DNA of 64,000 nt from assembly GCA_049511835.1 (NCBI GenBank), contig JBEKXN010000004.1:81231-145230 (forward strand), in the 5' to 3' direction. The notes beneath the pieces were generated by a model, which was given only the letters and a program-made list of their open reading frames with translations, was not told the DNA's origin and searched no databases. A program made the position numbers and the translations under genes. Within the stretch, counting starts at the first letter, position 1; every line of letters begins with the position of its first letter. The DNA comes from Verrucomicrobiota bacterium (GTDB taxonomy: Bacteria > Verrucomicrobiota > Verrucomicrobiia > Limisphaerales > UBA11358). Below are positions 12,522 through 50,058 of the stretch, piece by piece.

Positions 12522-12729
12522 ATCATTGGCTTTCCAATGAGTCTTATGGCTTTTAGCGGCATCATTCCATTAAGTCAAGGAATAATTGCGTGTGATGGTC
12601 GGAAACGCGCACTCCCGTCACAGTGTTTTCGAGGCGGACGGCCGGGTAATTTGTCGCGACTTTGAAACGCGGGGCATCCTGAAATCGCTTTTCGCATTTG
12701 TACCGCCCAATTACTCTTCTGGAGAACTG

Positions 12730-17695: not shown

Positions 17696-17811
17696 AATGG
17701 GAAGCTCCAATGAATTATTGATCGGAATGTGCTTTTAATGTTCCGCGAACATGGGTGATTCGGTCTGGTTAACAGGAAGGTAAAACAAATGATGCGGATG
17801 GTAGTTTTCAT
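17692..17811 (-). pseudogene. 39-codon remnant of a fourth hydrolase paralogue (signal-peptide stub), bridging two cistrons
   Basis: MKTTIRIICFTFLL matches the paralogue N-termini MKTAIRAICFTLLL and MTTAIRVLCFMILL, then diverges. ATGA overlaps at both ends. Confidence 0.5.
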
Positions 17812-19583
17812 TTTAGTTTCTTTCCCTCGTGATTTAACCCCGTAATACTGCGGACTACCGCCGTCACTTCTCCCTGGCCATTCTTGATGAAGGTGTATCG
17901 CATGTGATTGATCTTGCAGAAAAAGTTCGTTTCCGATTCGGGATACATATCGAAGGCGCCCTCGAGAACGTTCTCGCCCCAGGCTTGCCCGAACAACTGG
18001 TCTCCCTGCCGCCAGATCGTCAGTTTGATTCCCGTGGGATACGCGGCGTCCGGCGCGACTTCGTAATGGCCGACACAGGCGTCAAGAAGTTTTGGGGCCA
18101 GCTTGATGGCAACAGGCCGTTTCAGCGGTTCGGGGGCTTTGGGCGGCTGATCGGAGATTTTCTCATAATAAAACTCTCTGCCCTGGAAGTGCACGGTTAA
18201 GCCGGTCACCTTGCCTCGTGTATCCCGGGAAAAGGTCATGGGTATGCCGCTCAACCTTTCAAAAAAACGATTTTCCGATTCCGGCAATAATTCGATGGTG
18301 AGAGGCGGTAATAATACATCAACCGGCCACGATCTTGATCCTGTGGCCTGGGCGAAGAGCCGGTCCCCTTCACGGCAAATACCGATGCCGGATGGGATCA
18401 TATTACTCGACACGAGCGCAACATCAGGTGGACGCTGGTATTGTCCGAGATACGAACCATAAACTTTGTTGCTGATTTTGGTTTCCTTGGGCCGATGGTC
18501 CGACTGCCATTCGCTTTCGAGTAACAAGAGGCCCAAGCCGTAAACGACATCCCAATCTTCCGTGTTAGCCAAGACCACCACGCCGCGCCGCCGGGCCTTG
18601 TCGAAACCGATGAACGTGCGAAAACCGCCCGTACCTCCGGTTTTCCAGATGATTTGTGTCCCATGCAGGTCGGAAATATACCAAGCCAACCCAATGTCAG
18701 TGTCCGGCTCTAAACGAAAGTGCGCGACCTGTGTTTTTTCCATGAGCGGTGTCAGAGTGGATGGCGTCAGGCCGAGGTTGGCAGACACGTATTTGAGCTG
18801 GTCATGGGCCGTCGAGCACAGCGCACCACAGCCCGCCAAGACCCCAAATTCCATAACCGGGACCGCGTAGTTGAGTTCAGAGTGTCCCTGTGCAAACCGC
18901 GCTTTCATTCCGGGCGTCAAAGTGATCCGCGTGCTGTCCATCTTTAGTGGCCGGCAAATCCGATCCACCACGAGCGACTCGTAGTTCGTCCCGGCTTTCA
19001 GCGCAATGACATGACCGAGCAATCCCATTCCTAGGTTGGAATATTGATATTTCGCGCCCGGATCACGGGTCAATCTGTAGCCGGACAGGAAGGCATACAA
19101 CTTTTCGACGGAATAATCAGCATAGGGGCTATCCGCGCTTTTGGTGTCAACGTTGTCAGGATTGTCTGGCAGCCCGGAGGTGTGCGTCGCCAGTTGAAGC
19201 AAGGTGATTTCCTTGCCGTTGCGGGTTGGCATCCTGACCGACTTGGGCAAATACCTGGCCACGGGATCATCCAGCTTCATCTCCCCGCGCTCAATCATGT
19301 CTTGCAGCAACAGCGCGGTAAATGTCTTCGTGACCGAACCGATCTCAAACACGGTACTGCCATTCACTGCCTGATCGGTCCCGTTATCCAGTTTTCCGCA
19401 ACTGACAATGCTGCTGCCATGCTCGTCCACAATGCCGACCACTATGCCGACGTCACGCTTTTCAAGCTCGACGCGCTGTTGCAGGTAAGCGTGGATGGCA
19501 TTGGTGAAATCCTCCGCCGCAGCACGGAATGAAGATGCCGATAACAATATCATGAAACAAAGGACTCGGATGGCAGTGGTCAT
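17808..19583 (-). CDS. beta-lactamase-fold serine hydrolase (class C/EstB-like) with two C-terminal DUF3471-like modules
   Basis: Signal peptide. The SVTK (SxxK), YSN and KTG motifs are all present. C-terminal module LDACVGHYEVAP...LTIWRQGDQLFGQ...PESETNFF...GEVTAVV. Confidence 0.8.
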   Translation of the reverse strand: MTTAIRVLCFMILLSASSFRAAAEDFTNAIHAYLQQRVELEKRDVGIVVGIVDEHGSSIVSCGKLDNGTDQAVNGSTVFEIGSVTKTFTALLLQDMIERGEMKLDDPVARYLPKSVRMPTRNGKEITLLQLATHTSGLPDNPDNVDTKSADSPYADYSVEKLYAFLSGYRLTRDPGAKYQYSNLGMGLLGHVIALKAGTNYESLVVDRICRPLKMDSTRITLTPGMKARFAQGHSELNYAVPVMEFGVLAGCGALCSTAHDQLKYVSANLGLTPSTLTPLMEKTQVAHFRLEPDTDIGLAWYISDLHGTQIIWKTGGTGGFRTFIGFDKARRRGVVVLANTEDWDVVYGLGLLLLESEWQSDHRPKETKISNKVYGSYLGQYQRPPDVALVSSNMIPSGIGICREGDRLFAQATGSRSWPVDVLLPPLTIELLPESENRFFERLSGIPMTFSRDTRGKVTGLTVHFQGREFYYEKISDQPPKAPEPLKRPVAIKLAPKLLDACVGHYEVAPDAAYPTGIKLTIWRQGDQLFGQAWGENVLEGAFDMYPESETNFFCKINHMRYTFIKNGQGEVTAVVRSITGLNHEGKKLK

Positions 19584-20791
19584 TTTAGTTTCTTTCCCTC
19601 GCTATCCGGAACCCCCGCTTGAGAGGAATGGTGGATGACAGCCGTCACTTCTCCCTTGTCATTCTTGATGAAGGTCAATTGCGCGCCATCGATTTTGAGG
19701 AAGAAATTCGTTTCCGATTCGGGATAAATATGAAACGCACCTTTGAGGGTGTTCTCGCCCCAGACTTGTCCGACCAACTGATCTCCTTCCCGCCAGATCG
19801 TCACCTTCCCTACAGTGGGAGACATGGCGTTCGGCGCAAATTCGTAGTGCCCGACACAGGCATCAAGAAGTTTTGCGTCCAGCTTGATGGCAACATGCGA
19901 TTTGGCTGGTGCAGAATCCGGGACGCTGGCACTGGCCGGGAGTGGCACTTTCGGTTCTTTGCCCAGATAGCCGATGCGGCACAGAAACTCATCAACCTCC
20001 TCCGTTGTTATTCCCAGCCAGGGCGGCTGATTGAAGAAGCCGTGCGATTCCCCTTCTGTGAAGCAGGCCTCGACCGGTGCGCCCAGGGATTTGCTCTTCT
20101 GGACAAACTCGCGGATCTCATAGTTAAACTGATCTTCCGTGCCATCGATGAACAATGTGGGAGGCGCTTTTTTGCAGACATGAAAGAAAGGGGAAATCCG
20201 CTTCAGCATCGCGTCGTCCATGCCGGTGAGGGGGTTGTCGGCACCACCGCCGCGCAACGCGATCAGGTTCAGGTCGGGGTTGTAGAGAACCATCGCATTG
20301 GGCTTGGGAGAGACGGATTTGTCGTCGTCCGGAGCGTTGATCCCCTCGGCGAAAAAGGTGCAGGCCGCGAGATGCCCCCCTGCCGAACCGCCCGAAGCCA
20401 CGATACGGTTGGGATCGATGCCGAGCTGGGCAGCATGGCTGCGGACCCAGCGCATGGCGCTGATGGCGTCTTCGACGCATTTGTCGAGCTTGACGCCGTC
20501 CTTGGCGTGGGTACGGCGATCGGCACGGGCACAGACCAAGCCACGCTTGGCGAAGTATTCGGCCTGAGGCTTGAACTGGTCAAGCGTGCCGCCTCCACCA
20601 GAAAAGAAAACAATGGCCGGGTGCTTATCGGCTGGCTTCCAGTCGGGCGGGTAGTCGAGGTCGAGCGTCAGCTTCCGTTCGCCGACGGTCTTATAGACAT
20701 ATTGCGCCTGTGGTTTGGCCTCCGCCGAAGCGCGAAAGGAAAACGCCGATAACAGTATCGTGAAACAAATTACTCGGACGGCAGTGGTCAT
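19580..20791 (-). CDS. alpha/beta-hydrolase (esterase/lipase-type) fused to one DUF3471-like module
   Basis: The signal peptide resembles those of the neighbours. IVFFSGGGG oxyanion region and GGSAGGHLA nucleophile elbow. The C-terminal module resembles those of the flanking genes. Confidence 0.75.
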   Translation of the reverse strand: MTTAVRVICFTILLSAFSFRASAEAKPQAQYVYKTVGERKLTLDLDYPPDWKPADKHPAIVFFSGGGGTLDQFKPQAEYFAKRGLVCARADRRTHAKDGVKLDKCVEDAISAMRWVRSHAAQLGIDPNRIVASGGSAGGHLAACTFFAEGINAPDDDKSVSPKPNAMVLYNPDLNLIALRGGGADNPLTGMDDAMLKRISPFFHVCKKAPPTLFIDGTEDQFNYEIREFVQKSKSLGAPVEACFTEGESHGFFNQPPWLGITTEEVDEFLCRIGYLGKEPKVPLPASASVPDSAPAKSHVAIKLDAKLLDACVGHYEFAPNAMSPTVGKVTIWREGDQLVGQVWGENTLKGAFHIYPESETNFFLKIDGAQLTFIKNDKGEVTAVIHHSSQAGVPDSEGKKLK

Positions 20792-34996: not shown

Positions 34997-36523
34997 ATGT
35001 TAGCGAGGGTCTGTTCCGCCGCGCTCAATGGCATTGAAGCGTATCCCGTCGAAGTCGAGGTCAACGCCGGTTACGGTGACACCCTGGTCGTCATCGTCGG
35101 CCTGCCGGATGCCGCGGTGAAGGAATCGCGCGACCGTGTCTCCACCGCGCTCACCAATTCCGGTTTCAAATTTCCGATGGGCCGCACGACCATCAACCTC
35201 GCGCCCGCCGACGTGAAAAAGGAGGGGCCGAGCTTCGACCTGCCCATCGCCGTCGGCATGCTCGCCGCCGGGGAACAAATCGAAACCGACCAGCTTGACA
35301 ATTTTGTCATCGTGGGCGAACTCGCGCTGACCGGCGCGGTGCGTCCGTGCAAAGGCGTTTTGCCCGTCGCGCTGCGTGCGCGCGCCGACGGCAAGGTTGG
35401 CGTGCTGGTGCCGGCGGAAAACGCCGCTGAAGCCGCCGTCGTCGAAGGATTGCAAGTCATCCCGGTACAAAATTTGCGCGAGGCCGCGGGCTTTCTCGAA
35501 GGCGAGATCAAAATCGCGCCGGTAAAGGTGGACATCGCCAAAATTTTCGATCAAGCGCACGACGACGACTTGGATTTTGCCGAGGTCAAGGGCCAGGAAA
35601 ATGTAAAACGCGCATTGGAAATCGCTGCCGCCGGCGGACACAACGCGCTGCTCATCGGCCCGCCGGGCACCGGCAAGTCCATGCTCGCCAAGCGGCTGCC
35701 GACAATTTTGCCGCCGCTGACCCTGGACGAGGCGCTGGAGACCACGAAGATTCACAGCATCGTCGGGCTGCTGGCCCCGGGACAGGCGCTGGTGACGCGG
35801 CGACCGTTCCGCACGCCGCATCACACAGCCAGCGACGCCGGCCTGCTCGGCGGCAACATCAATCCGACGCCGGGCGAAATTTCGCTCGCGCACAACGGCG
35901 TTTTGTTCCTGGACGAACTGCCGGAGTTCAAGCGCAGTGTGCTGGAGACCATGCGCCAGCCGCTGGAAGACGGACGCGTGACCATTTCCCGCGCGGCGGG
36001 CACCATGACGTTTCCGTCGCAATTCATGCTGGTGGCGGCAATGAACCCGACGCCGGACGGCAAAATGCCGCATGAATCGAGAAGCTCCCCGCGCGAGATC
36101 CAGAATTATCTGGGCCGGATATCCGGGCCGTTGCTGGATCGGATTGATTTGCACGTGGAAGTGCCGCCGGTGAAATTCCGGGAAATCGCCGGTGACCGCA
36201 CGGGCGAAACCTCGGCGCAAATCCGTGAGCGCGTCGTGGCCGCGCGCCGCCGCCAGCACGAACGGTTCAAGTCCAAGCCGAAGATCACCTGCAACGCCCG
36301 GATGGGCACGCGTGAATTGAAGCAGTTCTGCGAGCTGGATGAGGGGACGAAGGAACTGCTGAAAAACGCGATGGCCGATTTGAATTTGAGTGCCCGGGCC
36401 TACGACCGGATTTTGAAGGTGGCGCGAACGATTGCGGACCTGGCCGGCTCGGAAAAAATCCTGAGCGACCATATTTCGGAAGCGATCCAATACCGCTCTT
36501 TGGACCGGCAGATTTGGGCATGA
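34997..36523 (+). CDS. comM: YifB/ComM family Mg-chelatase-like AAA+ ATPase
   Basis: N-terminal Lon-protease-like domain ([11 protein letters not shown]...[13 protein letters not shown]). Walker A motif [19 protein letters not shown]. Confidence 0.85.
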
Positions 36524-36578
36524 AAATGTTCAAAGGATTTGTCGTTCCAGATTGTCTAACTTGGTAAAAGAAAGCCGC

Positions 36579-37127
36579 ATGGGCGACACGGATGAAGAGA
36601 AAACTTGGGTGTTACAGAGTCGGAATGGCGATCCTGCGGCTTTTGAATCGCTGATTCGCGCGCATCAATGCATGATCCATTCGCTGACATTCCGGATGAC
36701 GGGATCAATGGCCGATGCCGAAGACTTGGCGCAGGAGGCCTTCATCCGCGCTTACCGGCAACTGGATTCCTACCAGGGCACGGCAAAGTTTTCCTCATGG
36801 CTTTATCGGATTGCGGTCAACGCCTGCTTGAACTGGCGACAGCGGGAGATGCGCCGCGATCAAATTTACACCCAGTGGGCCGAGTCAAACGCCGTTTCTC
36901 AATCCGAACCCGGCCCCGATGCCCCTGGCTGGGAAGTGCCAGCCGCCTTGATGAAGTTGCCAGCCAAACAACGCGCCGCCATCGTGTTGACCGTTTACGA
37001 CGGACATAATCACGCGGAAGCGGCGAAAATCCTGGGGTGCTCCGAGACGACAGTCTCCTGGCGCGTGTTTGCCGCTCGCCGGAAATTGAAACGGCTGTTG
37101 AGCGCTAAGGGAGGAAGCAATGAATGA
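36579..37127 (+). CDS. ECF (group 4) sigma-70 factor
   Basis: Region 2 is DLAQEAFIRAYRQL...FSSWLYRIAVNACLN. Region 4 is LPAKQRAAIVLTVYDGHNHAEAAKILGCSETTVSWRVFAARRKLK. Confidence 0.85.
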   Translation: MGDTDEEKTWVLQSRNGDPAAFESLIRAHQCMIHSLTFRMTGSMADAEDLAQEAFIRAYRQLDSYQGTAKFSSWLYRIAVNACLNWRQREMRRDQIYTQWAESNAVSQSEPGPDAPGWEVPAALMKLPAKQRAAIVLTVYDGHNHAEAAKILGCSETTVSWRVFAARRKLKRLLSAKGGSNE

Positions 37128-37719
37128 TTTTGATTTGGAGCAAAAACTAAAGGCCGTGCGGGTTCCCGAGCGCGAAGAGGATTATTGGGAATCATTTCCG
37201 CGGTTGGTATCGGCAAAGTTGCGCACGACTCCTGCAAGGCGTCCAGTGGGGGAACAACACTGGCCGCCCCGGCTGGCGTGGGGCGGCGGCATCGCCTTCG
37301 CCTGCCTGCTCATTGGTTTTGCCATCGGTCATTGGCACGGTCGGATGGAAAAGAATGATCCTTACGCGTTGCTGCAAAACGGGAAGATGCTCCGCGAAGT
37401 ATTGACGCTTTTCCCCAACCGCGTCCGGGCCATCATTCAGGATGAACACGGGGTGCAACTGGTGCTTTCCGATCAGTCCGACATACCGGCCTCGACGCCG
37501 ATTTATGTTCACATTTGCGACGGCAAACAATGTTCGTCGCTGGTGACTTTCAGTGGCCAGGAACTTGAAATCGCCGGGCGGAAGGTCACGGTGCTTTTGG
37601 ACGCTCAGGATGGCGTAATTGTGGCGGGGCCCCAGTTCGCCTGGTCGAGCGATCAGCCGGCCGGCGCGAGCAGCGGCTTGAAGATCGAGGCCAGAAGTTT
37701 GAGCTCGATAACGTTGTAA
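37120..37719 (+). CDS. single-pass membrane protein, putative anti-sigma factor (non-zinc type)
   Basis: Overlaps the sigma gene by 8 nt. One TM helix (GGGIAFACLLIGFAIGHW). No HxxxCxxC motif. Confidence 0.5.
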   Translation: MNDFDLEQKLKAVRVPEREEDYWESFPRLVSAKLRTTPARRPVGEQHWPPRLAWGGGIAFACLLIGFAIGHWHGRMEKNDPYALLQNGKMLREVLTLFPNRVRAIIQDEHGVQLVLSDQSDIPASTPIYVHICDGKQCSSLVTFSGQELEIAGRKVTVLLDAQDGVIVAGPQFAWSSDQPAGASSGLKIEARSLSSITL

Positions 37720-37728
37720 CTAAAGATC

Positions 37729-40700
37729 ATGAAAAAACTTCTGGCGGCTTTGGCCATTGTGATTTTGGCGACCCAGTTATTGGCGCAGTCCAACATGCCG
37801 GTTCGGCTGGCGTTGATTGCGGAAACAGACGAGGCATCCGCAGCCTCGGATGTTTTGACGGTCCAACTTTCCGCCAATCAAAAAATCCAATTGCTGGAGC
37901 GGAATGAAATCGAAAAGGTCTATCGCGAGCAGGGATTGTCGGCGGCCAACAAGGATTACCTGAAGCTGGGGCGGATTCTCGGCGCGGATGGATTAATGTT
38001 GTTCGATGTGGTTCGAACCAAACAGGCGACCAATTTAATGACGCGGCTGATCGCGGTGAAGCCGGGCATAATTCTGGCGAACGAAGGTTTTTCATGGCCG
38101 CTGGCAAGTATAAATGAATGGTCGTCTTCATTTGCGGAGCATTTGAATTTGTTTTTCCCCAAACTGACCGTTCTGGCCAAAGAAGCCATTCCCATTTCGG
38201 TGGTGAACCTGCGTTCCGCGGTCCAGTCCGCCGAATCGCAGGAAGCGGAACGGCAATTGAAGCTGCTGGCCATTCAGCGGTTGAGCCAGGAACGGCAATT
38301 TTTTGTTCTGGAACGGCAACAAATGCAATTGTTGGGCGAGGAAAAAGAATTGAAATCGGATGACTCGGCGTTTTGGGACGGCAGCTACCTGCTCGAAGGC
38401 ATCGTGGATCAAAACGGTTATTCCAAGGATACCATCACCATCAACGCGCGTTTGACTCCACCGAAAGGTGGCGCGCCGCTGCTTTTTGAAGTTAGCGGCA
38501 GCCGCACCAATTTGGTAGATGTCATCAATCATTTGGCAGCAAAAGTCGCCGAACTGTTGAAGATCAATTCCACCGTCAAGGAATGGAATGCCGCCGATGA
38601 GGCGCAGCAATACTTTGAGGAAGCGAAATGGGCGCTCAAGTGGGGAGTCTATTCAGAAGCGCAAGCGGCGGCGGAATCGGCTTGGGCGCTGGGAAAACGA
38701 GATTTGGACTGTGCTTTGGTGCGGGTGAAATCTTACCTGGCAGACGCAGAACCCACCGATCCCAACGACCTGTATGAAAAGGGCAGTTACAGGGATGAGA
38801 CCGGCACTCCCGGCGATATTGATTCCTTTATTCGGGAATTGACCAACGCCCAACCTGGTAAAGTGATATTTGAACGGAATGGCAACGTCGTCCATTCTGT
38901 AATTCTTAAGAAACAACCTGACCAATTCAAATTCATCCGGTTGGTGCATGCGCTTGAGCTTTACGAGGCACAATTAAATTCATTGCAATGGAGTGATCCG
39001 ACAATCCGTAAAGAGTGGTGTGAGCTGGGCACAAGCCTTCTGGAAACCGCCGGCCAATGGTTGCGGGATTATTGTCTCGCAAAGCAGGCGCGGGCGGGAG
39101 TCGAGACACAGTTGGAGTCAGCGCGGCGACTCAGCGGGAAAATCGCGACCGCGCTCGTCGTCATGCCGGAAGCCAATGAGGAACGGTTCTGGAATGCCGT
39201 AGGCGGCTTCGGCGTCTTTTGGTGCGAGACGCCCGAAGAAGGCGTGGCACTCTACAGGAAACTTTTCGGACTGCGCCGGTTTAGTTCTGTGCGAAAGCAC
39301 GTGACCGGGTGCTACCCGGTTTTTTGCAATAAACTGCTGCTGCCCGTGCTGGCGGCGTGGCACGAGGAGGACGATAATCACATTGCTCGACTCTGGCGCG
39401 ATCTGGTGGAAGAAATGTGCGCGTCAACAAACAGTGAGCTTCGCGGCAATGGCTATTTCATTGTTTGTGCCGAAGCCGATAATGCACAAACATTCGTAAA
39501 AGCCCTCCGAATATCAAACAAATGTTTCTACGGTAATGACTCGAGCATCGTTTCTGACCTTGTAACATTGTCCGAGGAAGGACGGGACAAATTCACCCGC
39601 GACCAATGGATGTTGGCTCGGCAGGCGAAACTTGACCTGGTTGTCGAGCTGGAGACTCAGGAAGCCAGATCGAACGCCATGCGATCTATTCCACCCCTGT
39701 CACCCATGTTGTCGCGACCATTCCAATTCCTTACGAATTCGAATCTTCCAGCGTTGGCTAAACCCGCGCCTGTTGCTCCTCAAAAAGTCGAAACCCAACC
39801 CAGCAATCTGCTCGAAGTCACCCGGTTCTGGGAAATTCCGCTGACAAACAAATTGACGTTCACAAATTATTCCGGCGAAGGTGAAAACGAGTTTACGATG
39901 GCCGCGCCGAGTTCGGTAATCGCTTTCTGCTATCGTGAAGGTTACCTGTGGGTGGAAGCCGAGCATGAATGGGGTGATGTTCATCCGCGTTTTTTCTTCC
40001 GGGTAAACTTGGAAACTTTCGCATCGGAAACCATCCCCGTCGACAAGGACCGATACCACCCCCAGGACAGTTATGAATTTGCCGGCTCATTTCGAACATT
40101 TGAGGTTTATAGCAACCATCTTTACGCGAGTTCGAGCGATGGCATCAAACGATACTCGCTGGCACGCAAAACGTGGGAAGACCTGCCCGTGCCGGTTGGC
40201 GGCCATGCCCGAATAACTGCATTTGACGGTCGGATTTTTCTGAGCAGCGCGAATGCCATCATTGAAATGGCGACCGATGGTCGCACGTCGAAGGTTCTGG
40301 CCAGCACCCGGCGTCGCCCGCCGTTGACGATGCTCGATACGATGGATGGTTATTTCATGAAGGTTGCGCCGGATTGGAGTTCCTGCAAGCTGTTCGCGCC
40401 CGTTCTTCCCGGCCCCGACGGATCGGTCATGATGTTCTTGATCCCGAAAACCGAAGTTGCGGCGACGAGGGCGTCGCCACTACGCACAACTCCGGTTTTC
40501 GGGTTGAACGGGAGATTATACCTGCTGCCGCGTGGTGCGAGTGACTGGATCCCTGCAACACAAATTGCTGCTAGTCGAGAGGCAGAACGTTCATTTTCCA
40601 CTTGCGGCCTGCTGGTTTTGTCCGCGCTTGAATATGGCTTGTCGCAACCACCTGCGCCCGAATTGTATTTGATCCGTGCCGGTTCCACCAATGCGGATTG

Positions 40701-41109
40701 TATTATCGCCGACAAACCAGGACCGGGAGAACAAGCTTATTTGAACTCGATGAATTTTCACATACAACCAGTGCTAACGCGATGGACTTCGCCTGAGGGG
40801 ATGCGCATTGCTGATTCGCCTGCATGTCTGGATGGAGACACGCTGTGGGTCCTGCATGGCCGCCCCAGCGACTTGAATCTTACTTTGCTCCACTATTTGC
40901 CCGGCCAAACCAAGCCGGTTCAATACCAATTACACCTGAAACAACCTGATGCTGGCAGGATACATTCCGATTGGCATTTCCCATACAAATGGATTCAAAT
41001 TGAAGCGACACCTCAAGGCATCGTTTTCGGTGGCGCGGGGGTGAGTGGTCTCTGGTTTGTTCCCTCTAACGAACTTCAAAGGAATAACCTGTCTGAATTG
41101 TCAAAGTAG
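37729..41109 (+). CDS. large secreted protein: two LpoB/CsgG/TolB-N-like modules, a helical region and a C-terminal beta-propeller-like region
   Basis: Signal peptide. VRLALIAE...LLERNEIEKVYREQGL and ISVVNL...FVLERQQMQLLGEEKEL. The C-terminal repeats have a ...LW(V/I)... hydrophobic pattern. Confidence 0.45.
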   Translation: MKKLLAALAIVILATQLLAQSNMPVRLALIAETDEASAASDVLTVQLSANQKIQLLERNEIEKVYREQGLSAANKDYLKLGRILGADGLMLFDVVRTKQATNLMTRLIAVKPGIILANEGFSWPLASINEWSSSFAEHLNLFFPKLTVLAKEAIPISVVNLRSAVQSAESQEAERQLKLLAIQRLSQERQFFVLERQQMQLLGEEKELKSDDSAFWDGSYLLEGIVDQNGYSKDTITINARLTPPKGGAPLLFEVSGSRTNLVDVINHLAAKVAELLKINSTVKEWNAADEAQQYFEEAKWALKWGVYSEAQAAAESAWALGKRDLDCALVRVKSYLADAEPTDPNDLYEKGSYRDETGTPGDIDSFIRELTNAQPGKVIFERNGNVVHSVILKKQPDQFKFIRLVHALELYEAQLNSLQWSDPTIRKEWCELGTSLLETAGQWLRDYCLAKQARAGVETQLESARRLSGKIATALVVMPEANEERFWNAVGGFGVFWCETPEEGVALYRKLFGLRRFSSVRKHVTGCYPVFCNKLLLPVLAAWHEEDDNHIARLWRDLVEEMCASTNSELRGNGYFIVCAEADNAQTFVKALRISNKCFYGNDSSIVSDLVTLSEEGRDKFTRDQWMLARQAKLDLVVELETQEARSNAMRSIPPLSPMLSRPFQFLTNSNLPALAKPAPVAPQKVETQPSNLLEVTRFWEIPLTNKLTFTNYSGEGENEFTMAAPSSVIAFCYREGYLWVEAEHEWGDVHPRFFFRVNLETFASETIPVDKDRYHPQDSYEFAGSFRTFEVYSNHLYASSSDGIKRYSLARKTWEDLPVPVGGHARITAFDGRIFLSSANAIIEMATDGRTSKVLASTRRRPPLTMLDTMDGYFMKVAPDWSSCKLFAPVLPGPDGSVMMFLIPKTEVAATRASPLRTTPVFGLNGRLYLLPRGASDWIPATQIAASREAERSFSTCGLLVLSALEYGLSQPPAPELYLIRAGSTNADCIIADKPGPGEQAYLNSMNFHIQPVLTRWTSPEGMRIADSPACLDGDTLWVLHGRPSDLNLTLLHYLPGQTKPVQYQLHLKQPDAGRIHSDWHFPYKWIQIEATPQGIVFGGAGVSGLWFVPSNELQRNNLSELSK

Positions 41110-41115
41110 TTAAAA

Positions 41116-41973
41116 ATGAACGCGCTAACCAAATTGACTCTTCTGACCGCCGCCAGTCTGTGGTCGGGCGCGGCCTGCGCCCAGTTGCAACTGCTGTCTG
41201 ACCGGGAACCGCAGCAGGTGTTCGCCGGCAATGCGCGGGAAATCACCGTCGTCTGGCACAATGCCGGCAACAAAAGCGCAGCCGCCGAAATTCGCGCGCG
41301 GCTTTATCAGGCCAGTTCCGCGACGGCCGCTCCGCTGTCTGAGAAAGCTTGGAAGCAAATCGAGATTTTGCCCGGGCAAACCGTGCTCGAATCCGCGTCC
41401 TTGGACTTTCCTGCCGTAAACGCGGAAACACGTTTTCTCATTCAATGGCTGGAAGGCACCAATCAGGTCGTCGGGAAAACTGAGGTGCTGGTTTATCCGA
41501 CGAACCTGCTGGCGGAATTAAAGACGCTGGTGGGCGATGAGAATTTTGGCATTCTTGATCCGAACGATGAACTCAAACCGTTGCTCAAGCAGAACCACGT
41601 GGAATTTTCGGATTTGGGAGAAGCCGCGCTGGAAGATTTTCAGGGCAAACTGGCCATCATCGGGCCGTTCCAATCGAAAGGCCAGATGCGTGAAGGCCTG
41701 GCGCCGACGATTCAGAAAATTGCCCGGAAGGGCGTGGCCGTGGTCTGGATTCAGCCGCCACCGGGACCAAAGGACCAAATCAAACCATCGTTTTATGTCG
41801 TACCGGAAGGCAAAGGTACGGTTGTTATCGTCCAGTCTGACCTGGTTGCCGGTCTGTCGGAAAATCCCAGGTCGCAATGCAACCTGATTGATTTTTGCAA
41901 GCTGGCGCTAAATCCCATGCCGTTTTCCCTGCCCGATTTCAAAACTCAACCACGAAACCAAAACACATTATGA
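41116..41973 (+). CDS. secreted protein, beta-sandwich plus alpha/beta domain, unknown function
   Basis: Signal peptide ending ACA-QL. No motif recognised. Confidence 0.4.
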   Translation: MNALTKLTLLTAASLWSGAACAQLQLLSDREPQQVFAGNAREITVVWHNAGNKSAAAEIRARLYQASSATAAPLSEKAWKQIEILPGQTVLESASLDFPAVNAETRFLIQWLEGTNQVVGKTEVLVYPTNLLAELKTLVGDENFGILDPNDELKPLLKQNHVEFSDLGEAALEDFQGKLAIIGPFQSKGQMREGLAPTIQKIARKGVAVVWIQPPPGPKDQIKPSFYVVPEGKGTVVIVQSDLVAGLSENPRSQCNLIDFCKLALNPMPFSLPDFKTQPRNQNTL

Positions 41974-42899
41974 AAACACGAATCGCATTAATCCTGGCCT
42001 TGCTACTGACCGTCGGCACAACCGTGCGCGCGGCAACCAATGATGTTCTCACCGTCGCGGTCTTCGACTTTGAATCGAAAGACGAGGCCGTGAGCGGTCT
42101 CGGTCCCAAGGTGGCCACGTTGGTCAACGCCAACCTGTCCGCCGAACCGCAAATCATCACGGTGGAACGTGCAGAACTGGAAAAGGTTTTGGGCGAACAG
42201 GAACTGGGCTTGTCTGGAACCGTTGACCCCAACAGCGCGGCCAAAATCGGCCAATTGACCGGGGCCAAGGTACTCGTCACCGGACGGGTGTTCAAAACAG
42301 ATGGTCAGACCATCATTGTGGCCAAGGTCATCGGCACCGAGACCAGCCGGGTTTATGGCGAAATGGTACAAGGTGGATCGTCCGCCACGATCGTTGACCT
42401 TTCGTCCAGTCTCGCGAAAAAAATCGCCGCGGACGTGTCGGGGAAAAGCGACACCTTGATGGCCAGGGTGGAAACGCGCGAAGAGCGGATCGCCAAACTC
42501 AAAAAAACCCTCGATGGGAAAAAACTGCCGGTGGTTTCGGTAAAAATCAACGAACGGCATTACGGGCCGCACATCATTGACCCGGCGGCGGAGACGGAAC
42601 TGTCTTTGATCCTGCAGCAATGCGGATTCACGCTGGCGGACAGCAATTCCACCAACAAACCGGCCATTGAAATATCGGGTGAAGCCTTCAGCGCCTACGG
42701 CATGCAAAAGGGCAACCTGATTTCCTGCAAATCGCGGGTGGAAATCAAAGCCCGCGACCTCGATACCGGAAACATTCTTGTGGTGGACCGTCAAACCAGC
42801 GTGGGCGTGGACATTGCGGAGCAAACCGCCGCCAAGACGGCATTGCAAAATGCGGCGGACGTGCTGGCGGAACGCGTGATTCCAAAACTGGGGAAATGA
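41970..42899 (+). CDS. CsgG/LpoB-like periplasmic protein
   Basis: Signal peptide. LTVAVFDFESKDEAVSGLGPKVATLVNANL...ITVERAELEKVLGEQELGLSG...AKVLVTGRV is a CsgG/LpoB-type module. ATGA overlaps at both ends. Confidence 0.55.
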   Translation: MKTRIALILALLLTVGTTVRAATNDVLTVAVFDFESKDEAVSGLGPKVATLVNANLSAEPQIITVERAELEKVLGEQELGLSGTVDPNSAAKIGQLTGAKVLVTGRVFKTDGQTIIVAKVIGTETSRVYGEMVQGGSSATIVDLSSSLAKKIAADVSGKSDTLMARVETREERIAKLKKTLDGKKLPVVSVKINERHYGPHIIDPAAETELSLILQQCGFTLADSNSTNKPAIEISGEAFSAYGMQKGNLISCKSRVEIKARDLDTGNILVVDRQTSVGVDIAEQTAAKTALQNAADVLAERVIPKLGK

Positions 42900-45800
42900 A
42901 AGCATTCTTTTGCCGGTTTTTTTGCACGGTAATTTTTCTTGCGGCCCTGCGAATTGAGGCGTCGCCAAGGGTTGCGTTGATGGATTTCTCTACCGACGAC
43001 AATTCCTATCGCAGCGCGTTGGCGGCAGCAGATTTTAGCGCATTGCTTCAGGTAAAATTGAAGGATGTCGACGGCCTCGAATGGGTGGAGCGCAGCCAAT
43101 TGCAGGCGGCGGAAAAGGAGCTGAAGCTCTCCGCTGCGGGTTTGGTTTCGTTGTCTGCGGCGCTACGCGTGGGCAAGTTCGTAAAGGCCGATTTATTAGT
43201 AGTCGGGCAATTCACTTCCGCGTCCCAACTCAAACGGGTATTGCATCTTGAAGTAATCGACCTGGAGCACGCGGATGTTTTGGCTGAGACATCGCTGCCG
43301 ATTGTTGGTGTTCCGAACAAGCCCCTCGGAGTTTCCGTCATGGACGTCACGGCAGCGGAAAAAGGTTTCAGAACCATTATTAAGCAGGCATTAGCAAGTC
43401 AGTCGCGCGTGAAGAACCAAACGATAATCGCGCCGCTATTCTTCGCCAACACCTCCAGCAGCCGGCGGCTTGATTATCTGGAAACTGAATTACAATCAGC
43501 GCTGGTTGAAGCTGCGGCGCGGGAGGGTGCGCGAGTTCTGCAATTTCCACGCGCCAACATGGCTGTGGAAGAAGCTGAACTTGTCGTGGCTGGCTTGGTG
43601 GAGCAAGACCCGACCGCGTGGCAGAAGATGGCGGATGTTTATGTTTGGGGGCAATACGAGGAAGCGAAAGCCGATGGGCTTGCCTTTGAGCAAACACCGG
43701 TCACTTTCACACTCAACCTCTGGGATGGCAGTGACGAAGTGCAGACCCTGACGGAAACCGTGAAGGTGTCGGAGCTGCCGCAATTAAAGGAGCGGCTCAT
43801 CAAACGAATGCTCGATGCGGCCCAATCATTCAAAAAGCGACCACCTTCGGAGACAGCGCGCCATCAGGTGGCCCGTCAGCTTCTGTTTCGTGCTTACGAT
43901 GTTCAGGCATCGCCCAAGCCGTCGGGTGAAACAGCACAAGGCCGGCAATTGTGGGAATATGAAGTCAAATTGCTGGCCACAGCGCATTTTTTTGCGCCTG
44001 AATCCCATCTTATTCATCGTTTCTGGCTCGAAAATCGCTGGTTGCATTTGGCCCAATCCAATCTCTTTGGGCAGCACCTGGAGCAAATTCGTAGTTACGC
44101 TGAGTTTGAAAACAAGTTCGGTCTGATCACCCCAAAGGAAATGGAATCAGACCTTTTGACAGGTGGGCAGTGGCTTTCTTTCTCAAAACCCCGGGAGGTG
44201 GATTCGGCTCTTGAATGGGGTTGGTTGATTGCGCTGCGGGATGTGTGTGATACCATCAATGGGGAAAGCAAGGAAGGGCTTCCGATAGAAAAGATGTCCG
44301 GTTTTCCGACGGATGCTCCGCGGGCAGTGCTCGAATCGTGGCGGGACCAGATGAACGACGATTTCGTGCGCCGGCTGTTTATCATGTACGAGCAAGCATT
44401 GCATTCCAACCCACCCATTCCCGTGCCCAATGCACATCTGTTTATCGATTACGGCCTTGTTTTCGCCTTAAAAGACAAGGAAATAAAAGTGAAGTTTATC
44501 GAAGACCTCTGGCCGGCATATCTGGAGTCTCATTACGTGCCTTCGGCGCGTCACGAATACAGTGCTGAGGAATTTGAGGTTTACTTCACCAGAGGCATTC
44601 TGGCGGATGTCCAACGGGCCTTCACGGAGGCTGGCCGACCCCAAGCAGCGGAACCATTGATAGCAGCGTTCAAGCAAAAGGTGAAGATTGTGGCCGATCC
44701 TACGGCTGACATCAGAGCCGCTTGGGAAAATCCCCGCAAGCTGGTGACTGTGGACTTTTTGCCGCCCAACCTGAAGCCGGAATTGAAACCCGTCATGTTC
44801 CCGGGAAAGCCGTCCGTGGACGGAGTGGTGGCGTTGAAATTCAACGAGGGCATGCTTTGGGTGAGTACCCGGGCAGGTGCGATGACCTGGAGCGATCCGG
44901 CTTGGGAATACTTGACAAGGTCGCACACAAACGCAGCGGTCTGGCGGCTTTCAGCGAACAGCAGCACGCCGGAAATGATCTCATCCAAGCTTGGCCAACA
45001 CTCAAAGGTTACGTCTTTCTGTGCGCAGAATGACAAGCTGTGGATGACACTGGAACAGGATGGCGTGTTCTGTCTTTCGCCCGAAACTTTACAGAACACA
45101 CGTTACGGGGATAAACAAGGGGTGTTGTCACGCCAAATGTTTGCCAGCGCTCTTGTGGGCAAACGGTTATACTTCGGCGGTGGTGAGCCGAATAGCGGAA
45201 AATTAAACTATGTCGAATTGCCGGGACGGCTCTGGAAAAGTCAGGATTTGGGAAGCGAAATCGGTGCTCAAATCGTGTTGCTACAACCCTTTGGGAACAA
45301 CCTGTTGGTCAATGACCGGATTCTTAACACAGGCAGCGGAGTGTGGCGGTCCGTTCGCGACGAACTGTTGGGGGGAAATGCACCCCCGTTCAATAGTGGC
45401 ATGCCGACGCGCGAGTTTGAGTTGCTGGCGGCAACCGCCGACACGAATGCCTTGTGGCTCGGACATACCCTGGGACTGATTTCTTATAACCCCGATACTG
45501 GGGCTCAACATCATTGTTTTTCTGTGTGGGGCGGCTATCTCGTGGATGCCAGGAGCGGTGCGGCCACAAACGCCATGCCGACCTCTCGGCTGCCAGGGAG
45601 CGTGACCGCCTTGGTGAACGATGGAGATTTCCTGTGGGTGGCCGCGACCACGCGATTTGATCCGTCACTTAATGGCAACGGAAGCGAAGGACGATGGGTG
45701 AACGGCTACCTTGTGCTCACCTTGCGCCCGGGTTGTTTTGGATACGGCGGCGGCGGCAACAGTGGTGGATGGCGTAACATGTATGCAAAGAACGAACGCA

Positions 45801-46099
45801 ATTACGTGCTGCTGCTACATAAGCCAACCGGAAAGTGGGTTGGATACTTTCCGGTCACCAGCCGGGTCACAAGTCTGGCCGTCTCCGGCGAAAAGCTTTG
45901 GATCGGCCTGGAGGCCACCGGCTATGTCGCGCTGGGCGAACACTCGTGGGAAGACGATGAAAGGTTCGTGCCCAGTCCGCTGATCGAAGTGCGCAAGTTG
46001 CCCTTGCTCGCCATTTCGCCCAGCGAATGGATTCCTGACGAGGTTACGCCCACCGAACTGAAAGTACGCATACAACAGGCAATTCAGGCATTGAAATGA
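42896..46099 (+). CDS. large secreted protein: two LpoB/CsgG/TolB-N-like modules, a helical region and a C-terminal beta-propeller-like region
   Basis: RVALMDFSTDD...WVERSQLQAAEKELKLS...ADLLVVGQF. C-terminal repeats such as NALWLGHTLGLISYNP, GDFLWVAATT and GEKLWIGLEATGYV are Reg_prop-like. Confidence 0.45.
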   Translation: MKAFFCRFFCTVIFLAALRIEASPRVALMDFSTDDNSYRSALAAADFSALLQVKLKDVDGLEWVERSQLQAAEKELKLSAAGLVSLSAALRVGKFVKADLLVVGQFTSASQLKRVLHLEVIDLEHADVLAETSLPIVGVPNKPLGVSVMDVTAAEKGFRTIIKQALASQSRVKNQTIIAPLFFANTSSSRRLDYLETELQSALVEAAAREGARVLQFPRANMAVEEAELVVAGLVEQDPTAWQKMADVYVWGQYEEAKADGLAFEQTPVTFTLNLWDGSDEVQTLTETVKVSELPQLKERLIKRMLDAAQSFKKRPPSETARHQVARQLLFRAYDVQASPKPSGETAQGRQLWEYEVKLLATAHFFAPESHLIHRFWLENRWLHLAQSNLFGQHLEQIRSYAEFENKFGLITPKEMESDLLTGGQWLSFSKPREVDSALEWGWLIALRDVCDTINGESKEGLPIEKMSGFPTDAPRAVLESWRDQMNDDFVRRLFIMYEQALHSNPPIPVPNAHLFIDYGLVFALKDKEIKVKFIEDLWPAYLESHYVPSARHEYSAEEFEVYFTRGILADVQRAFTEAGRPQAAEPLIAAFKQKVKIVADPTADIRAAWENPRKLVTVDFLPPNLKPELKPVMFPGKPSVDGVVALKFNEGMLWVSTRAGAMTWSDPAWEYLTRSHTNAAVWRLSANSSTPEMISSKLGQHSKVTSFCAQNDKLWMTLEQDGVFCLSPETLQNTRYGDKQGVLSRQMFASALVGKRLYFGGGEPNSGKLNYVELPGRLWKSQDLGSEIGAQIVLLQPFGNNLLVNDRILNTGSGVWRSVRDELLGGNAPPFNSGMPTREFELLAATADTNALWLGHTLGLISYNPDTGAQHHCFSVWGGYLVDARSGAATNAMPTSRLPGSVTALVNDGDFLWVAATTRFDPSLNGNGSEGRWVNGYLVLTLRPGCFGYGGGGNSGGWRNMYAKNERNYVLLLHKPTGKWVGYFPVTSRVTSLAVSGEKLWIGLEATGYVALGEHSWEDDERFVPSPLIEVRKLPLLAISPSEWIPDEVTPTELKVRIQQAIQALK

Positions 46100-46309
46100 A
46101 ACTGTAAGGACTAGCGTGTTTTTGGTTTTCGATGGGCACACGATCAAAACAAAGCTGGCAAATGACAGAACTGTCATCTGCCGTTCAGCGGGCGCTCATC
46201 TCCACAAGGTTTCATGGTGACGTTTCAGTTAAAAAACAGACGCTTGTTGACGCCGAGCGCCCGGAAGAGCAAAAGTGGTTGGGCAAATTCAACTAAAAGA
46301 AGTCGCGTT

Positions 46310-47320
46310 ATGGAAAAAATTCTATTGCCGGTTCTGTTCAGCCTGGCCGTCGCGGTTTGCCGCGCCGACGGGCCTTATCATTTCATCAAGGAAATCCCCG
46401 TCGGCGGCGACGACGGATGGGATTACTGTTCCGCCGATTCGGCGGCGCAGCGCCTTTACGTCTCGCACGGCAACAAGGTCGTGGTCGTTGACCTCGCCAA
46501 GGACCAGGTCGCCGGTGAAATTACGAACACGCCCGGAGTCCATGGCATCGCTCTGGCGTCCCAATTGAATCGTGGATTCACCAGCAACGGTCGCGAAAAC
46601 AAGGCGAGCAGCGTTGACCTGAAAACTTTGTTGACGATTTCCAAAGTGGACACGGGGACAAATCCCGACGCGATCCTTTTTGAGCCGGGACAAAATGAAG
46701 TTTATGCGTTCAACGGACGCGGCCAATCGGCAACGGTGATTGATGTCAAATCAGCCAAGGTCGTGGCCACTATTCCGCTGGGAGGCAAACCGGAATTTGC
46801 CCAGGCTGACCCGGCGGCGGGCCGCGTTTACAACAACATTGAAGATAAAAACGAGGTCGCCGTGATTGATACGAAGTTGCATCAGGTCGTCGCCAACTGG
46901 CCCATCGCGCCGGGCGAGGAGGCTTCCGGCATGGCGATGGATTTGAAAAACCACCGGCTGTTCCTCGGCTGCGGTGGCAGCAAGACGATGATGATGATGG
47001 ACAGCGCCAGCGGCAAAGTCATCACTTCAGTGCCCATCGGTCAAGGTGTGGACGCCAATGCATTTGATCCGGAAACCCAACTCGCGTTCGCCTCTTGCGG
47101 AGATGGGACGGTCACAATTGCGCATGAAGACACGCCGGACAAGCTGACCGTGGTGCAGACGCTGGAAACCCAGCGCGGTTCACGCACGATGGCGCTTGAT
47201 CCCAAGACGCACAAAATCTACCTGGCCGCCGCCAAATTCGAGGCCCCGGCGGAAGGCCAGCGGCGCGGCAAGATGGTACCGGACAGCTTCAAAATCCTGG
47301 TGTACGGCATGGAGAAATAA
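46310..47320 (+). CDS. YncE/YVTN-family seven-bladed beta-propeller protein, secreted
   Basis: Signal peptide. Repeated ...VYVSHGNKVVVVDL..., ...ATVIDVKSAKVVATIPLGGKPE... and ...VAVIDTKLHQVV... units. Confidence 0.65.
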   Translation: MEKILLPVLFSLAVAVCRADGPYHFIKEIPVGGDDGWDYCSADSAAQRLYVSHGNKVVVVDLAKDQVAGEITNTPGVHGIALASQLNRGFTSNGRENKASSVDLKTLLTISKVDTGTNPDAILFEPGQNEVYAFNGRGQSATVIDVKSAKVVATIPLGGKPEFAQADPAAGRVYNNIEDKNEVAVIDTKLHQVVANWPIAPGEEASGMAMDLKNHRLFLGCGGSKTMMMMDSASGKVITSVPIGQGVDANAFDPETQLAFASCGDGTVTIAHEDTPDKLTVVQTLETQRGSRTMALDPKTHKIYLAAAKFEAPAEGQRRGKMVPDSFKILVYGMEK

Positions 47321-47552: not shown

Positions 47553-47610
47553 GGGAGGGACGCCGTGTCGGCGTCCCTAAAATTGGGAACGGCAACATGC
47601 CGTCCGTCCC
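47553..47610. repeat. twin-hairpin REP-like element (inverted copy of 30507-30564)
   Basis: gggagggacgcc-gtgt-cggcgtccc, then taaaattg, then ggaacggca-acat-gccgtcc, then gtccc. Confidence 0.75.
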
Positions 47611-48270: not shown

Positions 48271-48774
48271 ATGAACAGCCCTTTATTTCCGAGCGAACAA
48301 CAGCTTTGCACGGCAAAAATTCTCATCATTGACGATGAGATGGCGGACATCCGCATGCTCGAATGGGCATTAAAAAAGGCCCAATTTCCGAACTTTCGAA
48401 GTTTGACCGACCCGGCCAGGGCGCAAAAGGAATTCGAACAGTTTCAGCCCGACCTGGTGCTGCTGGATTTGCACATGCCCAAACTGGATGGGTTTGCCAT
48501 TTTGGCGCAACTGCGGAAGTCCGCGCCGGCCGGAGAATTCCTGCCGGTGCTGGTGATCACGGGAGAGAACACGGCCGAGACGCGCAGCCGGGCGTTGGCG
48601 GCCGGGGCCAACGATTTTCTTGGCAAACCCATTGATTATACCGAGGTCATGCTGCGAATAAAAAATTTGCTGCAAACCCGGTATCTCCACCGGCGGGCGG
48701 AGGACATCCAGGCACAACTGAAAGCCCTCTCCGCCGTAAAGGAAACCAAAATCAAATCCGCCCGGAAACATTAA
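48271..48774 (+). CDS. stand-alone response regulator receiver protein (CheY-like)
   Basis: KILIIDDE...DLVLLDLHMPKLDG...VLVITG...FLGKP. Confidence 0.85.
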   Translation: MNSPLFPSEQQLCTAKILIIDDEMADIRMLEWALKKAQFPNFRSLTDPARAQKEFEQFQPDLVLLDLHMPKLDGFAILAQLRKSAPAGEFLPVLVITGENTAETRSRALAAGANDFLGKPIDYTEVMLRIKNLLQTRYLHRRAEDIQAQLKALSAVKETKIKSARKH

Positions 48775-48798
48775 GTTGATGGGCGCATCCGTGTCTGA

Positions 48799-50058
48799 AT
48801 GATGAAAACAATCCCGACAGAGGAACTCGACCGGCTGCTGGCGGCCATGATTCAAAGCGCCGACGGAATTTCAGATTTGCTTTTTGTGGCCGGCAAGCCG
48901 CCGCAAGCGGAGGTTCACGGCCGGCTCCGCCCGTTTGCGCTGGAGCCGCCTGAAACCGTGCTCACCAGCGATCACATCGAAGGCGTGGCCGGGGCGGTCA
49001 TCAACAAAAATGCCCGGTTGATTCAGGACCTGGCGAACCATGGGTCGTGTGATTGCAGTTATGCCCTGAAAAATTTCTGCCGCTTCCGCGTCAACATCTT
49101 TCGTCAGAACGGAAATTACGCGATGGTGATGCGGCGCCTCCAAGCCCAGATTCCGACTCTTGAATCCCTCCGCCTGCCGCCGGTGTTCCGCGAGGTCGTC
49201 AAGGAAAAGAACGGACTCATCTTTGTGACCGGCGCCACGGGCAGCGGCAAGACGACCACGCTGGCCGCCATGCTGAATGAAATCAACCAGACCAGCGATG
49301 TCCATATCGTCACCCTGGAGGACCCGATTGAATTTCTGCATCCACATCTCAAGGCCACGTTCAGCCAGCGCGAGCTGGGGCGCGATTTCTACACCTTTCC
49401 GGACGGCCTGCGCGCCGCCTTGCGGCAGGCGCCCAAGGTTGTCCTGGTGGGCGAAATTCGCGACCGCGAGACGATGGAAATTGCGCTCACGGCCGGGGAA
49501 ACCGGACACGCGGTTTACAGCACCCTGCACACCATCAGCGCTGGCCAGACCATCCAGCGCGTCCTGGGCATGTTCACCCGGGACGAGGAACAACAGGTGC
49601 GCGAACGCCTGGTCGGAATCCTGCGTTACGTCATCAGCCAGCGCTTGGTTCCCAGAAAGGACGGCGGACGGCTGCTGGTCACTGAGTTGATGGGCAGCAG
49701 TCTGCGCACCCGCGAAGCCATCGCGATCGGCGAAAATGAAAATCGCCGGCTGTCGGACATCATCGAAGCCGGGCATGCCTACGGCTGGCACAGCTTCGAG
49801 CAATCCCTGATTAAAGCCTACGAAGAGAATTTGATCACCGAGGAAACCGCGATGCTGTACTGCATCAGCAAATCCCAAATGCGCCAGCGCGTTGACCTGG
49901 TCAACAAGCGACGGGAAACCGCTCCCGCCGCCAGCACACTGAAAATGAAGGTGGACAAAACTCCCCCGGTGGCGATTCCCCTGCCGGAGACGCCTCCGCC
50001 CCCGCCACCGTTGTCGGATAATCCCGCCGCCGCCACCGCGAGCGGAACCAGCCGGTGA
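48799..50058 (+). CDS. pilT: PilT/PilU-family type IV pilus retraction ATPase with Pro-rich C-terminal tail
   Basis: Walker A motif GATGSGKTTT. IVTLEDPIEF, VLVGEIRD and the His box TLHT. The tail is ...PLPETPPPPPPLSDNP.... Confidence 0.75.
   Translation: MMKTIPTEELDRLLAAMIQSADGISDLLFVAGKPPQAEVHGRLRPFALEPPETVLTSDHIEGVAGAVINKNARLIQDLANHGSCDCSYALKNFCRFRVNIFRQNGNYAMVMRRLQAQIPTLESLRLPPVFREVVKEKNGLIFVTGATGSGKTTTLAAMLNEINQTSDVHIVTLEDPIEFLHPHLKATFSQRELGRDFYTFPDGLRAALRQAPKVVLVGEIRDRETMEIALTAGETGHAVYSTLHTISAGQTIQRVLGMFTRDEEQQVRERLVGILRYVISQRLVPRKDGGRLLVTELMGSSLRTREAIAIGENENRRLSDIIEAGHAYGWHSFEQSLIKAYEENLITEETAMLYCISKSQMRQRVDLVNKRRETAPAASTLKMKVDKTPPVAIPLPETPPPPPPLSDNPAAATASGTSR

Follow-up and report, generated by a model that had tools for sequence, protein, structure and literature searches.

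A recurrent ECF sigma factor cassette of Verrucomicrobiota with a two-site promoter motif and exported proteins built on CsgG/LpoB-like modules

The DNA considered here is a stretch of 64,000 nucleotides (nt) from a Verrucomicrobiota bacterium (contig JBEKXN010000004.1, positions 81,231 to 145,230 of the forward strand), which we call the window and within which all coordinates are given unless another locus is named. We found that six tightly packed genes at 36579-46099 form a cassette also present in about 40 related loci, of which nearly all carry the label Verrucomicrobiota. Its invariant core consists of a sigma factor of the extracytoplasmic function (ECF) family, a candidate anti-sigma factor, and two families of predicted exported proteins, here named p285 and p309 (the latter in one to six copies), while very large exported proteins, the giants, are accessory. 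With moderate confidence, we read this as a self-contained ECF signalling cassette that would make an inducible periplasmic scaffold. The regulatory skeleton of this reading is well supported by sequence: the ECF pair would be autoregulated, and the exported core would have a second promoter of its own. The six genes are the following (lengths in amino acids, aa).

36579-37127, + strand: sigma gene (182 aa), ECF (group 4) sigma-70 family sigma factor
37120-37719, + strand: anti-sigma gene (199 aa), putative single-pass anti-sigma factor
37729-41109, + strand: giant1 gene (1126 aa), predicted exported
41116-41973, + strand: p285 gene (285 aa), predicted exported, from a family without a Pfam model
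41970-42899, + strand: p309 gene (309 aa), predicted exported, CsgG-like
42896-46099, + strand: giant2 gene (1067 aa), predicted exported

An earlier note on this DNA had proposed an ECF sigma/anti-sigma pair tightly linked to four secreted proteins, and its description of the layout agrees with ours. The sigma and anti-sigma reading frames share 8 nt (ATGAATGA), spacers of 9 nt and 6 nt separate anti-sigma from giant1 and giant1 from p285, and ATGA overlaps join p285 to p309 (41970-41973) and p309 to giant2 (42896-42899). Translation of the sigma gene is assigned to the ATG at 36579, where 'CGCATGGGC' is kept in relatives; a TTG at 36552 was rejected as a start, as it falls within the promoter described below. 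The signal peptides claimed for the four downstream proteins are also borne out, each having a signal-peptide-like hydrophobic N-terminus followed by an AxA-type cleavage site, and a conserved lipobox cysteine is present in none of giant1, p285, p309 and giant2.

To describe the related loci, we collected the genomic contexts of four giant homologues plus 35 loci from a scan with a p285 profile, keeping one genome per species, and annotated all of them with the six window proteins as queries. In every locus not cut by a contig end the genes follow one shared order: sigma, anti-sigma, zero to two giants, p285, one to six copies of p309, and again zero to two giants. p285 is present in 40/40 related loci, the anti-sigma gene lies directly 3' of sigma wherever both occur, and giants number from none to three per locus, either 5' or 3' of p285/p309. 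The six genes thus do co-occur outside this genome, as the note had asked to be checked, yet not as a fixed set, since what recurs is a four-gene core with a variable complement of giants. Genes flanking the cassette are common to the closest relatives only and are otherwise unrelated among loci.

Conservation is unevenly distributed over the cassette. Median identity to the window proteins is highest for p309 (72%), the most conserved gene, followed by the N-terminal double module of the giants (63%), sigma (60%), p285 (57%) and the periplasmic domain of the anti-sigma candidate (56%), and it falls to 46% in the cytoplasmic N-terminus of the latter and to 36% and 31% in the middle and C-terminal regions of the giants. 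Homologues of giant1, p285 and p309 are also numerous in metagenomes. The carrier genomes are mostly labelled Verrucomicrobiota, Limisphaerales, Pedosphaera or subdivision 3, and the cassette is specific to this lineage of Limisphaerales/Pedosphaera-type genomes.

Seven carriers bear other labels (L011, L019, L029, L020, L031, L035 and L037), among them Bifidobacteriaceae/Bifidobacterium, Candidatus Sulfopaludibacter, Candidatus Angelobacter, Dongiaceae and Acidobacteriota. Their proteins are up to 88% identical to those of the window (p309 of L011), with 69-72% in the others scored, and because of these identities we take the odd labels to be binning or labelling errors of metagenome-assembled genomes.

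The sigma gene product is an ECF-family sigma factor, as the note had said. It matches Pfam Sigma70_r2 (E 7e-20) and Sigma70_r4_2 (E 1e-13) with no other sigma domains, and scores 90 bits against the TIGR02937 sigma70-ECF model, whose cut-off is 42.9. All NCBIfam equivalog models remain far under their cut-offs (SigM 123 against 190; RpoE 97 against 236), and the protein is not assignable to a named group with these models.

Aligning the DNA 5' of the sigma genes revealed a motif of fixed spacing, TTCAAAGGAWTT-N-(T/G)GTCNNA, with an information content of about 28 bits, at which a collection-wide scan would return thousands of matches by chance. Its two copies in the cassette are the following.

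36529..36559, + strand: P1, ECF-type promoter motif (TTCAAAGGATTT-N-TTGTCTAA), 5' of sigma
36532-36539, + strand: -35-like element of P1, AAAGGATT
36554-36559, + strand: -10-like element of P1, GTCTAA
41075..41105, + strand: P2, second copy of the motif (TTCAAAGGAATAACCTGTCTGAATTGTCAAA), within the last codons of giant1 and 5' of p285

An ECF-type promoter upstream of 36579, for which the note had suggested a search, is therefore present as P1. The -35 elements of the motif (GGAAT/GGATT, GGAAY-like) and its GTC-containing -10 elements resemble those of classical ECF promoters. The exact core AAAGGAWT-N14-GTC occurs only twice in the 64-kb window, at 36532 (P1, 47 nt 5' of the ATG of sigma) and 41078 (P2, 38 nt 5' of that of p285), and none of 100 shuffles of the window reached the observed count of matches with one mismatch. 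When both strands of the window and 41 loci were scanned (790 kb), 46 exact cores were found, against about 0.75 expected by simple odds: 31 are P1, in as many loci with the window included (30 by the automatic rule plus the match in L026, assigned by position), 13 are P2 (the window and 12 other loci), and two lie elsewhere. One-mismatch matches in the window at 12576, 14490, 19622, 38805 and 47545 were rejected for want of conservation, and the last of these also overlaps a hairpin-forming inverted repeat. One of the two exact cores outside P1 and P2 is on the minus strand of L023 (8698), just upstream of the sigma gene's own P1, suggesting a divergent sigma-dependent promoter in that genome.

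P2 is kept whether it overlaps the coding sequence of a giant or lies in the spacer between anti-sigma and p285. Among the P2 sites of the window and of L001, L007, L009, L010, L013, L014, L018, L022, L032 and L039, the arrangement GTC-N13-ATG, ending on the p285 start, is exact in most, that of the window (41100-41118) included, within a conserved GAAATGA context. Transcription usually starts 6-8 nt past a -10 element; if so here, the p285 mRNA made from P2 would be leaderless or nearly so. As a rule, ECF sigma factors control their own expression and have the genes of their regulators and targets as neighbours (PMC7826278). From the placement of the motif, this sigma factor probably autoregulates through P1 and directly drives p285-p309-giant2 through P2, and the position of P2 5' of p285 ties these three genes to sigma more directly than adjacency would.

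The second gene encodes a protein with one transmembrane segment by hydropathy (residues 51-70, nt 37270-37329). The orthologue alignment gives its cytoplasmic N-terminus, of about 50 aa, a conserved pattern MN..EL...LK.A..PE....FW..FP, and its periplasmic domain (nt 37330-37716) is strongly conserved, including Cys133/Cys138 (CxxxxC) and a VTFSGQE motif. Neither Pfam nor NCBIfam gave any match to the protein, nor did the periplasmic domain alone at E up to 10, and the cytoplasmic part has no recognisable anti-sigma domain (class I ASD or zinc-binding ZAS) and no Cys or His motif such as HxxxCxxC. Position, translational coupling and topology nevertheless point to an anti-sigma factor. The CxxxxC pair (ICDGKQC, nt 37516-37533, residues 133-138) is conserved across about 29 aligned orthologues with a single exception, and may form a structural disulfide or a site that responds to redox state or metals.

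This arrangement recalls RpoE (sigma-E)/RseA/RseB and other autoregulated ECF pairs, with a two-domain sigma factor, a single-pass membrane partner directly downstream, a promoter of the GGAAY...GTC type 5' of its own operon and exported proteins in the cluster. However, it differs from them in that no equivalog of a named ECF sigma factor reaches its cut-off, the anti-sigma candidate has no recognised domain or RseA/RseB-like relatives, and none of p285, p309 and the giants is related to a known partner or target of sigma-E.

The note's heading had described the four secreted proteins as built from CsgG/LpoB/TolB-N-like modules and beta-propellers, and the presence of the module stands for three of them: p309, giant1 and giant2 pass the gathering score of PF03783 CsgG (20.8 bits) with 36.8, 32.6 and 22.2 bits, respectively. 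In all three, the match covers only the N-terminal ~100 positions of the 210-position model. The E value for giant1 is 6.6e-8, and the p309 module is related to the first module of giant1 (BLASTP E 2e-6; hhalign probability 94%). The claim does not hold for p285, which has a different fold. The architecture of the two giants and of p309 is as follows.

37801-38166, + strand: giant1 CsgG/LpoB-like module 1 (residues 25-146), AlphaFold2
38188-38556, + strand: giant1 CsgG/LpoB-like module 2 (residues 154-276), AlphaFold2
38590-39681, + strand: giant1 helical repeat region with a small beta insert (residues 288-651), AlphaFold2
residues 647-691 of giant1, + strand: disordered linker, AlphaFold2
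39808-41064, + strand: giant1 beta-propeller (residues 694-1112), AlphaFold2
42039-42449, + strand: p309 N-terminal CsgG/LpoB-like module (Pfam CsgG E 3.3e-9, model positions 36-100 of 210)
42522-42896, + strand: p309 C-terminal domain (residues 185-309), after a helix, no match
42908-43825, + strand: giant2 N-terminal double module, by hhalign to the giant1 family

The AlphaFold2 model of giant1, with a signal helix at its N-terminus and a mean predicted local distance difference test score (pLDDT) of 79, reproduces the succession of two modules, helical middle and propeller that the note had read from the sequence. In giant2 the double module is recognisable too (residues 5-310 against giant1 residues 1-278, hhalign probability 98%), and the C-terminal region, with its LW(V/I/M/L) repeats, is probably a propeller (hhalign 45-57% against the giant1 family). 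Pfam gives nothing for the middle and C-terminal regions of the giants at E up to 10, including TolB_N and PD40, and sequence and profile searches of the PDB with giant1, p285 and p309 returned no genuine match. Homologues of giant1 are about 50% identical over the first 55% of the protein and vary at their C-termini, most metagenomic ones carrying EF-hands where the window protein has its propeller.

Two further observations concern the region between the giants and p285. Seven related loci have, between a giant and p285, an extra gene whose product of about 575 aa contains eight Sel1 repeats (for instance at 8215-9942 of L008); the window has none. A metagenomic protein of 1173 aa (P0388) continues from a giant1-like C-terminal half into a p285 domain without a change of frame. 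The giant1 and p285 genes of the window share one frame and are 6 nt apart, so that loss of a single stop codon would yield a protein of this type; P0388 may be a true fusion or a sequencing or gene-calling artefact (a missed stop codon), and we give it little weight.

The CsgG-like module that the note had seen in p309 is confined to the N-terminal half, the C-terminal half being unrelated to it by hhalign and without any Pfam match at E up to 10. p309 has 3391 homologues, with 75-95% identity for the best 120. Matches of WRAP-T to p309 were rejected as an artefact, a short weak match having been summed over a designed repeat protein.

As for p285, its AlphaFold2 model (pLDDT 84) comprises a beta-sandwich (residues 24-127, nt 41185-41496) and a small alpha/beta domain (131-265, nt 41506-41910), both unrelated to the CsgG-like module by hhalign. 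Foldseek matched only the generic beta-sandwich (Fn3-like domains of GH3 enzymes, the Ig domain of AlkC, Spo0M) and gave no lead for the alpha/beta domain, and Pfam has no family for the protein. The family is compact and uniform in length, with 1101 homologues, of which the best 120 are 66-96% identical, and 523 representative clusters among 1.84 billion proteins. The hydrophobic core of their signal peptides often contains a cysteine, at no fixed position, and AxA immediately before the mature QLQLL is conserved. One entry (P0369) joins a sigma fragment to p285 and is probably a merged gene call.

From these elements we infer a role for the anti-sigma candidate, a stimulus, a complex and a physiological function along the following lines. 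The membrane protein would hold sigma inactive via its short cytoplasmic N-terminus until a periplasmic cue, read by its conserved C-terminal domain, led to the release of sigma. The note had suggested a periplasmic scaffold or sensor complex under the control of envelope stress, and such stress may be the cue. Free sigma would then transcribe from the two copies of its own motif: from P1 the sigma, anti-sigma and giant1 genes, in a positive autoregulatory loop, and from P2 the genes p285-p309-giant2, on a nearly leaderless transcript. The products would be Sec-exported soluble proteins, among which p309 and the giants may assemble through their CsgG/LpoB/TolB-N-like modules, together with p285, into an inducible periplasmic scaffold. 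The exchangeable C-terminal heads of the giants, a propeller here and EF-hand calcium-binding domains in many relatives, would bind envelope components or ions.

We favour a scaffold because the parts bearing the module are the conserved ones, because the fold of this module is a docking or oligomerisation unit in known proteins such as CsgG, LpoB and TolB, because the accessory parts are domains of scaffold type (Sel1 repeats, EF-hands, propellers), and because P2 marks p285-p309 as targets. Several observations weigh against it. Neither p285 nor the C-terminal half of p309 has a functional analogue in the searches made, and the anti-sigma candidate matches no known anti-sigma domain and has an unusually short cytoplasmic part. 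Where a gene separates anti-sigma from p285, about half of the loci have no exact P2, and the motif could in principle bind another regulator. Finally, no giant is present in the cluster at L014, L018, L022, L024 and L030, so that the giants cannot be essential to the core function.

The main competitor, a real possibility although one that we would not expect to prevail, casts the exported proteins as co-sensors that would work on the anti-sigma factor's periplasmic domain, in the manner of RseB on RseA or of the FecA receptor on FecR. Here p285, p309 and the N-terminal modules of the giants would dock on the anti-sigma factor, the heads would set the input (calcium, for example), and P2 would close a feedback loop. 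Such a role would accord with the strong conservation of the periplasmic domain alongside p285 and p309, with giants whose heads vary on a conserved N-terminal double module, and with the frequency of EF-hand domains among giant homologues; in addition, genes near an ECF sigma gene are often those of its regulators (PMC7826278). However, a conserved sigma-type promoter directly 5' of p285-p309 is what would be expected of a target operon, and tandem amplification of p309, up to six copies, would be unusual for a stoichiometric co-sensor. The scaffold and co-sensor readings could both be true if feedback exists.

A bolder arrangement, which we put forward only tentatively, would combine elements of both: p309 (often amplified in tandem), p285 and the double modules of the giants could form a hetero-oligomeric periplasmic ring or lattice of CsgG/PelC-like modules with swappable heads, in direct coupling with the anti-sigma factor's periplasmic domain. 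If true, this would be a modular machine of the verrucomicrobial envelope, sensor and scaffold in one and not described before, whose input would be changed by swapping heads (EF-hands, propellers, Sel1) on a conserved chassis.

We regard it as unlikely that the giants are divergent regulators of TolB/Lpo type, induced by sigma and binding peptidoglycan synthases or outer-membrane lipoproteins for envelope repair or remodelling. The note had likened the giants to an enlarged TolB, and the likeness is a fair one as to layout: like TolB, they would be exported soluble proteins with an N-terminal alpha/beta domain and a C-terminal propeller, and Acinetobacter TolB (7mx5) stands at rank 3 among the generic propellers that Foldseek returns for the giant1 model (E 8e-5). 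However, the TM-score on the target is low (0.31), with a root mean square deviation of 15 Å, and generic propellers match equally well or better. The giants are also about 2.5 times larger than TolB, with two modules, a helical region of about 360 residues before the propeller, no TolB_N or PD40 signal, and EF-hands in place of the propeller in relatives. By these models, their likeness to TolB is clear in layout, and membership of the TolB family is not established. Similarly, p309 and LpoB, the activator of penicillin-binding protein 1B, both have a small periplasmic module of one alpha/beta fold class, but the match of p309 to the LpoB model (PF13036, E 0.13) reaches 12.6 bits against a threshold of 22.3, and p309 is not a lipoprotein. 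No tol-pal genes (tolQRA-tolB-pal-cpoB) and no gene for a penicillin-binding protein lie beside the cassette in any locus, and the giants are dispensable in several loci.

Slightly more doubtful still is a true outer-membrane channel of CsgG/HfaB type, in which p309 would export a fibre or adhesin, as for curli or the holdfast anchor, the giants or p285 serving as its substrate or as periplasmic adaptors. Besides passing the Pfam CsgG threshold, p309 carries the NCBI name 'CsgG/HfaB family protein', its mature length of about 287 aa is one that we take to be close to that of CsgG, and its C-terminal half contains, by eye, amphipathic stretches resembling beta-strands. The homology of p309, giant1 and giant2 to CsgG/HfaB nonetheless leaves out the half of the model with the transmembrane hairpins, and a PDB search with the p309 profile retrieves no chain of CsgG at E values up to 10. 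Moreover, the lipid-anchor cysteine is present in 0/31 p309 orthologues, the signal peptide of p309 itself ending in RAA/AT, and neither the window cassette nor the related loci include a CsgA/B/E/F-like or Hfa-like (hfaA/D) partner.

That the six genes have no functional link, being an arbitrary set or an island transferred recently, is very improbable: although the cassette has the lowest G+C content of any 9.5-kb stretch of the window (0.542 against 0.580 in the remainder, a small deficit due mostly to the two giants, in line with the AT-richness that the note had seen by eye) and its flanking genes differ between genomes, order and coupling are kept across about 40 loci, the motif recurs at two fixed places, the closest relatives have the same flanks, and no adjacent tRNA, integrase or flanking repeats were found.

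On this evidence, the exported proteins do not appear to be members of the curli, Tol-Pal or Lpo systems, and the note's statement that the block matches no named system agrees with this and with the equivalog searches. Our literature search found no paper on this gene combination; the sigma group or its neighbourhood may already be catalogued in the ECF Hub without functional study. An autoregulated ECF pair with co-encoded targets is a well-known regulatory principle, and the cassette should therefore be useful rather than startling to the specialist. What is new here is an uncharacterised, lineage-specific effector set, including a family without a Pfam model, under a familiar regulatory logic.

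Limisphaerales/Pedosphaera-type Verrucomicrobiota are abundant in soil, peat and freshwater, and to our knowledge almost nothing has been described of how they sense and maintain their envelope. The cassette offers in these bacteria a compact testable regulon, made of one sigma factor, one probable anti-sigma factor, a sharp two-site motif and a few strongly conserved exported proteins. It also presents soluble proteins without a lipid anchor in which the CsgG/LpoB/TolB-N fold serves repeatedly as a building block and the heads are exchangeable, and suggests that the annotation 'CsgG family' covers more than previously viewed.

The surroundings of the cassette in the window can be described briefly. 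PADLOC defence-system models and Rfam gave no matches. Directly 5', at 34997-36523, a gene with a G+C content of 0.62 encodes a ComM/YifB-type Mg-chelatase-like AAA+ protein, and P1 starts 6 nt past its stop codon. The next gene 3' of the cassette (46214-47320) encodes a beta-propeller protein with weak matches to YncE, cytochrome D1 and Mala_s_1-like families; its true start probably lies at an internal Met (residue 33), after which a signal peptide comes, and it adjoins the cassette elsewhere only in L007, the closest relative. Perfect or near-perfect inverted repeats able to form hairpins lie 3' of the cassette at 46157-46182 and 47555-47575 (GGCAAATGACAGAACTGTCATCTGCC, GGGACGCCGTGTCGGCGTCCC), and may be terminators, with no clear T-run on the + strand after either. 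About 2 kb 3' of the cassette, the interval 48271-50058 encodes a response-regulator receiver protein and, after it, a secretion ATPase of type II/IV (T2SSE family), neither being linked to the cassette in other loci. Another stretch of low G+C content in the window, at 16001-20000 (0.51-0.54), equals the cassette in this respect or falls below it.

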